A stretch of 64,000 nucleotides of DNA from Escherichia coli. GTDB taxonomy: Bacteria; Pseudomonadota; Gammaproteobacteria; Enterobacterales; Enterobacteriaceae. How positions within the stretch are numbered: position 1 is the stretch's first letter; every line of letters begins with the position of its first letter. Under the pieces are notes generated by a model. The model was not told where the DNA came from, made no database searches, and saw nothing but the letters and a program-made list of their open reading frames with translations. The DNA lies in the NCBI RefSeq assembly GCF_050920415.1, contig NZ_CP169309.1, one strand, 5' to 3'. The position numbers were made by a program, and so were the translations under genes. Below, piece by piece: positions 33,783 to 34,035 of this stretch.

Positions 33783-34035
33783 TCAGGCATCAACGCACGA
33801 ATGCCGGATGCGGCGTGACCGCCTTATTCAGCCTACCGAACCCGCACCGATTGTAGGCATGATAAGACGCGCAAGCGTCGCATCAGGCATCAACGCACGA
33901 ACGCCGGATGCGGCGTGAACGCCTTATCCTGCCTACCGAACCCGCACCGATTGTAGGCATGATAAGACGCGCAAACGTCGCATCAGGCATCAGCGCACGA
34001 ACGCACGAACGCCTGGTGCGGCGTAAATGCCTTAT
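33783..34035. repeat. REP/BIME cluster between phoH and efeB, including a tandemly duplicated ~100-bp unit
   Basis: repeated gccggatgcggcgtga(a/c)cgccttat...gcctac and gtaggcatgataagacgcgcaa..cgtcgcatcaggcat blocks. Confidence 0.75.

Follow-up and report, generated by a model that had tools for sequence, protein, structure and literature searches.

A tandem BIME-2 array with a strain-variable number of units in the 3' untranslated region of efeUOB in Escherichia coli

The BIME-2 family of Gilson, Bachellier and Hofnung consists of z2 and y REPs in multiple tandem copies, with a short linker S between them and s, l or r as flanking linkers (PMC3333891). BIMEs count among the main sources of intergenic polymorphism, according to Bachellier et al. 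1997 (Genetics 145:551) as cited by Ton-Hoang et al. 2012 (PMC3333891). BIME-1 elements (RIB or RIP; Y-L-Z1, with an IHF site) resemble the array reported here in being built of REPs and in lying at the 3' ends of transcription units, but they are single-copy and combine Z1 with a long L linker carrying the IHF site (PMC3333891), whereas the present array has short linkers, Z2 and tandem units. The REPIN/RAYT system offers a further comparison: the Y REPs of E. coli are substrates of TnpA-REP, for which Ton-Hoang et al. suggest a role in BIME recombination or amplification (PMC3333891). At our locus, in contrast, the region examined contains no RAYT gene, and exchange or slippage from one direct repeat to another suffices to explain every change at the array. 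Among individual elements, REP325 is the BIME-2 between yjdM and yjdN, and its 77-nt Y-l-Z2 module is what the naRNA4 model describes (PMC4550694). For REP325 as for our array, the two neighbouring genes point the same way, and transcription follows the strand of the upstream gene. It comprises six modules, however, against one complete module here, and the sequence of the inter-module spacer differs.

In a window of 64,000 nucleotides of E. coli DNA, the first-pass annotation had reported a REP-containing unit of about 100 bp, repeated in tandem with a few substitutions and followed by a partial third copy, between phoH and efeB. This description was borne out by Tandem Repeats Finder and by a repeat search, and the motifs that it had quoted are present. 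Tandem Repeats Finder called an array of period 100 at 33778-34004, with 2.3 copies free of indels, 94% matches and a score of 405, and a period-8 array at 33994-34012 containing 2.4 copies of CGCACGAA. The repeat search returned two 100-nt copies, at 33771-33870 and 33871-33970, with 92% identity, as well as a 43-nt core in three copies at spacings of 100 and 108 nt; the extra 8 nt of the second spacing is due to the micro-repeat. An adjacent 100-nt repeat at such identity cannot be chance. In the register adopted in Table 1, where the first and second units are called U1 and U2, the two differ at 5 of 100 positions. The location between phoH and efeB was also given correctly, with both minus-strand genes flanking the array. 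As to its extent, previously put at 33783-34035, the element does lie there, but in full it is slightly wider, running from 33771 to 34042. The partial Z2 tail at its left end is found in most alleles, and the terminal Y REP at its right end stops 6 nt from the efeB stop codon. REP stems are too short and imperfect for the default seed of an inverted-repeat search, which accordingly detected no arms; the hairpins are shown by the covariance model and by RNA folding.

Table 1. Positions in the window of the array components and of neighbouring features
Feature	Position	Strand	Remarks
phoH	32514..33302	-	262-aa form per PGAP annotation
86-aa ORF	33658..33918	+	TTG start; from the mechanical ORF list
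Partial Z2 REP tail GCAGGATTCGCGTCAGGCA	33771..33789		Left end of the BIME; aligns with the 3'-terminal parts of both full Z2 copies, 33871-33889 and 33971-33989
Unit 1 (U1), 100 bp	33790..33889		Linker 33790-33802, Y REP 33803-33836, linker 33837-33852, inverted Z2 REP 33853-33889
Complete Y-l-Z2 module (Y of unit 2 and Z2 of unit 1)	33856..33933	-	Rfam naRNA4, RF02564
Unit 2 (U2), 100 bp	33890..33989		Linker 33890-33902, Y REP 33903-33936, linker 33937-33952, inverted Z2 REP 33953-33989
Last linker, holding the 8-bp CGCACGAA micro-repeat	33990..34010		Tandem Repeats Finder array 33994-34012
Terminal degenerate Y REP GCCTGGTGCGGCGTAAATGCCTTATCCGCCTC	34011..34042		86% to the Y-containing 43-mer; the 'partial third copy'
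efeB	34049..35320	-	Last gene of efeUOB; stop codon 34049-34051

The array is a BIME-2, in which Y and Z2 REPs alternate in inverse orientation with short linkers between them. The Y consensus GCCGGATGCGGCGTGAACGCCTTATCCGGCCTAC matches the Y REPs of both units, with 3 mismatches at 33803-33836 and a single mismatch at 33903-33936; these are two of the three matches in the whole window, the number expected in shuffled sequences being 0. Z2 runs in the orientation opposite to Y, as the naRNA4 model places its second hairpin at 33889-33856, on the strand that also carries the reverse-complemented Y, and a second full Z2 copy occupies 33953-33989. The linkers measure 16 nt (CGAACCCGCACCGATT, S-type) within the REP pair and 13 nt (TCAACGCACGAAC) outside it, unlike the long L of BIME-1. 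The tandem arrangement (2.3 copies here, 0 to 3 units in other genomes) is that of the family. So is the location outside genes where an operon ends, here bounded by the efeB stop codon (34049) on one side and the phoH promoter region on the other. Nothing essential separates the array from BIME-2; the allele in the window exceeds the species norm by one unit, ends in a degenerate Y and carries an 8-bp micro-repeat within its last linker. The earlier assignment of the tandem unit to the REP/BIME class is thus upheld by the repeat calls, the Y consensus and the naRNA4 model. A further Y REP, perfect to the consensus, is located elsewhere in the window at 49923-49956 (+).

The naRNA4 model (RF02564) matches the array on the minus strand at 33856-33933, scoring 72.0 bits (E = 4e-13) where 59.5 is the gathering score, and over model positions 1-77 of 77, the module being the Y-l-Z2 module of REP325. 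Its first hairpin aligns to the Y REP at 33933-33903. The other modules of the array gave weaker matches; the one over 33956-34041 reached 40.2 bits, below the threshold. The model independently confirms the identities of Y and Z2. When folded, the efeB-sense (minus-strand) RNA of the array gave -136 kcal/mol, with z = -3.8 relative to shuffles, and formed extended Y:Z2 hairpins. A consensus scan for intrinsic terminators found none in the array. The number of above-threshold Y-l-Z2 modules varies with the allele: 0 in K-12-type alleles, 1 in RMDEC465 and in the window, and 2 in Z0117EC0005 and N96. A MIR918 match of 32.5 bits, below its gathering score of 268, was set aside as chance or low complexity.

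The genes efeU, efeO and efeB all lie on the minus strand, and phoH is next on the same strand; its K-12-style 354-aa form would start at 33578. Since the array is downstream of the efeB stop codon, across a gap of 6 nt, and phoH follows on the same strand, the array is within the 3' untranslated region of efeUOB. The efeB transcript continues into the BIME. No annotated CDS lies between the efeB stop codon and the phoH promoter region. On the minus strand at 33727..33745 stands CTGTCATCACTCTGTCATC, which we take to be the pho box of the phoH promoter, going by the PhoB-box consensus; the left end of the BIME is about 25 nt from this presumed box, and the array is upstream of it. Beside the BIME, downstream in the direction of efeB, the minus-strand RNA of 33751-33772, GCUGAAAGCACACAGCUUUUUU, forms a stem of 4 bp with a U6 tract directly after it. 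This stem and tract, for which the terminator scan made no call, could add to termination ahead of the pho box.

The number of units was surveyed in 5,426 complete E. coli genomes by means of ranked BLAST matches, in which multi-unit counts are lower bounds among the matches listed. The first-pass annotation had named an invariant copy number across strains as what would speak against it; 0, 1, 2 and 3 units were all found at the locus. One unit was present in 53 of the 57 informative records in an evenly spaced sample (~93%), while 2 records had none and 2 carried a third type of allele. Among the matches listed from the 5,426 genomes searched, at least 12 genomes, the window strain included, have two units and at least one, N96, has three. 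N96 was absent from the ranking obtained with a 501-nt query and was recovered solely by a synthetic 3-unit query; a synthetic 5-unit query brought up no array of more than three units among the matches listed. Escherichia sp. E1V33, an outgroup, carries a single unit together with a truncated terminal Y, as in K-12. A scan of GTDB species genomes for a 20-nt left-anchor pattern returned E1V33 and two chance matches (Acetobacter and an Acidimicrobiales MAG) and missed the E. coli representative, so that it is silent on other Escherichia species. As one unit is found in about 93% of the sample and in the outgroup, the one-unit state is ancestral and common, and the two-unit state is a rare, derived expansion.

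We compared 18 alleles by their lengths between fixed anchors. Alleles with no unit measure 113 bp (AF57) or 131 bp (O55:H7 RM12579 and MS1665). One-unit alleles are 212-213 bp long in K-12, O157:H7, A30 and E7-1N7, 219-231 bp in WP4-S17-ESBL-03, PSUO2 and RMDEC465, and 239 and 247 bp in EC42405 and 2017-02-2CC, respectively, where extra 8-bp repeats are present. The two-unit alleles are of 331 bp (the Z0117EC0005 and 2013C-4282 groups) and 339 bp (the window), and the three-unit allele of N96 is of 439 bp. All of the length changes fall between direct repeats inside the element. Four stretches are involved: the unit itself (100 bp), 81 bp running from Y to Y, 18 bp bounded by GAA(C/T)GCC repeats in the terminal Y, and the 8-bp micro-repeat. 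For the last of these, CGCACGAA is present once in RMDEC465, twice in the window and in EC42405, and three times in 2017-02-2CC. The 81-bp change is seen in O55:H7 RM12579, whose allele is the O157:H7 (SS17) allele minus the 81 bp between the repeated GAACGCCTTATCCG of two Y REPs. O55:H7 DEC5B retains the longer form, from which we infer that the RM12579 deletion is recent in the O55:H7 lineage. A division of the lengths into two series, 131+100n and 113+100n, proved too simple, as the 131-bp O55:H7 allele is a fusion of Y1 with the terminal Y, and derives from a 212-bp allele. The third allele family (TUM14771 and elppa4; about 3% of the sampled genomes) has the left junction GTACTGGTAAAAGCTT and one Y REP, followed by unrelated sequence; ahead of the efeB stop codon it contains a palindrome, ATGCCCGAT...ATCGGGCAT (TUM14771 excerpt 680-800).

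The flanks of the array were then compared with those of the other alleles. On the left (270 nt, 33481-33750), the window is identical to 2013C-4282, 2017-02-2CC and EC42405 and has 8-12 differences from Z0117EC0005 and RMDEC465. On the right (291 nt, 34049-34339, the 3' end of efeB), it shows 2-3 differences from RMDEC465 and Z0117EC0005 and 8-24 from the strains that it matches on the left. As judged by eye, the haplotype switches inside the terminal Y, between GCCTGGT and GCGGCGTAAATGCC. Across E. coli, both sides of this spacer show unusual divergence, with up to 16 differences per 270 nt on the side of the phoH promoter and up to 25 per 291 nt at the efeB 3' end. Flank haplotypes are also reassorted between the two sides, so that the locus looks like a local hot spot of recombination. 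In N96 (NZ_CM169999.1, excerpt 301-901), the flanks differ from those of the window strain at 0 and 2 positions and U1 is similar, while its units 2 and 3 are identical to each other at 100 of 100 positions and are of a different sequence type. What N96 shows is a very recent event of slippage or duplication on the haplotype of the window, and with it a continuing turnover of the array.

Taken together, we consider it highly probable that the locus is a BIME-2 in the efeUOB 3' untranslated region whose extra unit arose, most likely, by unequal recombination between alleles. In such a process the 100-bp units of different alleles would misalign, and unequal homologous recombination would then leave an extra unit here. 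In other strains of the species, replication slippage from unit to unit causes changes of this kind. The first-pass annotation had instead suggested a recent local expansion, that is, a simple duplication in situ by replication slippage with point mutations acquired afterwards. The copies are perfectly head-to-tail without indels, the two-unit state is rare, and units 2 and 3 of N96 make the same process visible, yet we regard this account as unlikely for the allele in the window. A divergence of 5 in 100 is well above what is usual within the species, and the differences are not private to the array: U1 is 1 difference away from the sole unit of E7-1N7, and U2 is identical to the sole units of RMDEC465 and 2017-02-2CC. 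Because U1 and U2 are closer to the units of other strains and because the flanking haplotype switches across the array, unequal recombination is favoured over simple slippage. What stands of the earlier suggestion is therefore a rare and derived expansion, but not one that produced U1 and U2 as sister copies. Gene conversion from other BIME-2 loci could be an alternative source of units that look shared; the genome matches contain a median of 7-8 BIME-2-like matching places per genome. The recombination history cannot be reconstructed uniquely from the 18 alleles. A different polarity, in which two or more units are ancestral and the common one-unit alleles result from repeated deletion, would account for single units resembling U1 in one strain (E7-1N7) and U2 in another (RMDEC465), the outcome expected if one or the other had been deleted, and deletions between internal repeats do occur (O55:H7 RM12579 and AF57). 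We nevertheless hold this to be quite improbable, for about 93% of the even sample carries one unit on many flank haplotypes, and the K-12-like arrangement of E1V33, with one unit and a truncated terminal Y, is found in the outgroup as well.

Two further readings concern what the array is rather than how its second unit arose. The above-gathering match across the U1/U2 junction raises the idea that the array functions as a small-RNA locus like naRNA4, with transcripts that would bind HU and condense the nucleoid and with additional units adding to the RNA dosage. Such a role was put forward for REP325 by Qian 2015 (PMC4550694), and the matches at our locus are confined in a way that could suit it, being absent from K-12-type alleles and numbering 1-2 in alleles with an intact Y after Z2. 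The same distribution weighs against it, however, since most E. coli are without a complete module here, which argues against an important or essential locus-specific RNA. Moreover, the Rfam family is in effect a generic BIME-2 module, and a match to it gives the sequence class and not a function. The nucleoid role of naRNA4 and HU proposed in 2015 is itself contradicted by a 2026 preprint (bioRxiv 10.64898/2026.03.23.713779), and we judge this reading of the locus very improbable. Hardly credible at all is the notion that the array is an assembly artefact or that its 86-aa ORF is a real small protein gene. Tandem repeats are prone to mis-assembly and the ORF does exist mechanically, but 13 independent complete assemblies, on at least 3 haplotypes, carry multi-unit alleles. 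The ORF runs from the phoH promoter region through the presumed pho box and unit 1 into the Y REP of unit 2, and it is unannotated in the RefSeq (PGAP) record of the genome. A Pfam search with both REP-derived ORFs (86 aa and 45 aa) gave no match. In other alleles the same frame encodes 44 to 117 aa with unrelated C-termini, the reading frame shifting with each unit because of the 100-bp period. The 86-aa ORF is spurious, just as the first-pass annotation had said.

Attenuation by BIMEs was reportedly described by Espeli et al. in 2001. By analogy with BIMEs that have been studied, transcription of efeUOB would extend into REP hairpins that may shield the efeB 3' end from 3'-5' exonucleases. 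The hairpins might also attenuate or partly terminate read-through into phoH, so that the Pho-controlled phoH promoter would be insulated from efeUOB. REP325 has been described both as a partial Rho-dependent terminator and as a stabiliser of the upstream mRNA (bioRxiv 10.64898/2026.03.23.713779). The DNA of the array may, in addition, be a preferred site of DNA gyrase, as BIME-2 elements show an enrichment of gyrase cleavage sites, chiefly within y REPs (PMC6379681); the supplementary files of that Topo-seq paper, in their accessible parts, make no mention of efeB or phoH. Finally, efeB might be translated less because of the terminal REP that stands 6 nt beyond its stop codon, given that translation of an upstream gene can fall when a REP lies within 15 nt of where that gene stops (Liang 2015, as related in PMC12306157). 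The 2026 preprint stresses that REP effects are context-dependent (bioRxiv 10.64898/2026.03.23.713779), and because they depend on context, the analogy to studied BIMEs may not transfer. One extra unit probably changes the effects of the array only quantitatively, if at all. It is conceivable, though we think it decidedly doubtful, that unit number acts as a heritable, strain-specific dial, in which more Y-Z2 hairpins would mean stronger attenuation of read-through into phoH and greater stability of efeB mRNA, and in which the rare two- and three-unit alleles would be selected and not neutral.

The array is real but ordinary: copy-number polymorphism of BIME-2 among E. coli strains has been known since Bachellier et al. 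1997 and was noted again by Ton-Hoang et al. 2012, and this locus is one more example. Its significance beyond annotation is small. Annotators should mark the region as a REP/BIME-2 repeat and treat neither the 86-aa nor the 45-aa ORF as a gene. The natural series of 0, 1, 2 and 3 units on known backgrounds could be used to study the effects of unit number on 3'-end stability, read-through and gyrase binding.

Several observations were made in the neighbourhood of the array. The Rfam family Ysr251 (RF02855, a Yersinia antisense sRNA) matches 32519-32712 (+) at 194 bits, above its gathering score and antisense to the 3' end of phoH, and this match is also present in K-12. In elppa4 and MS1665, pgaABCD is missing beside phoH, and a DUF2726 gene and a tRNA-Ser are found there instead. 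At this phoH-adjacent position, MS1665 additionally has RtT sRNA repeats in the place of pgaABCD.
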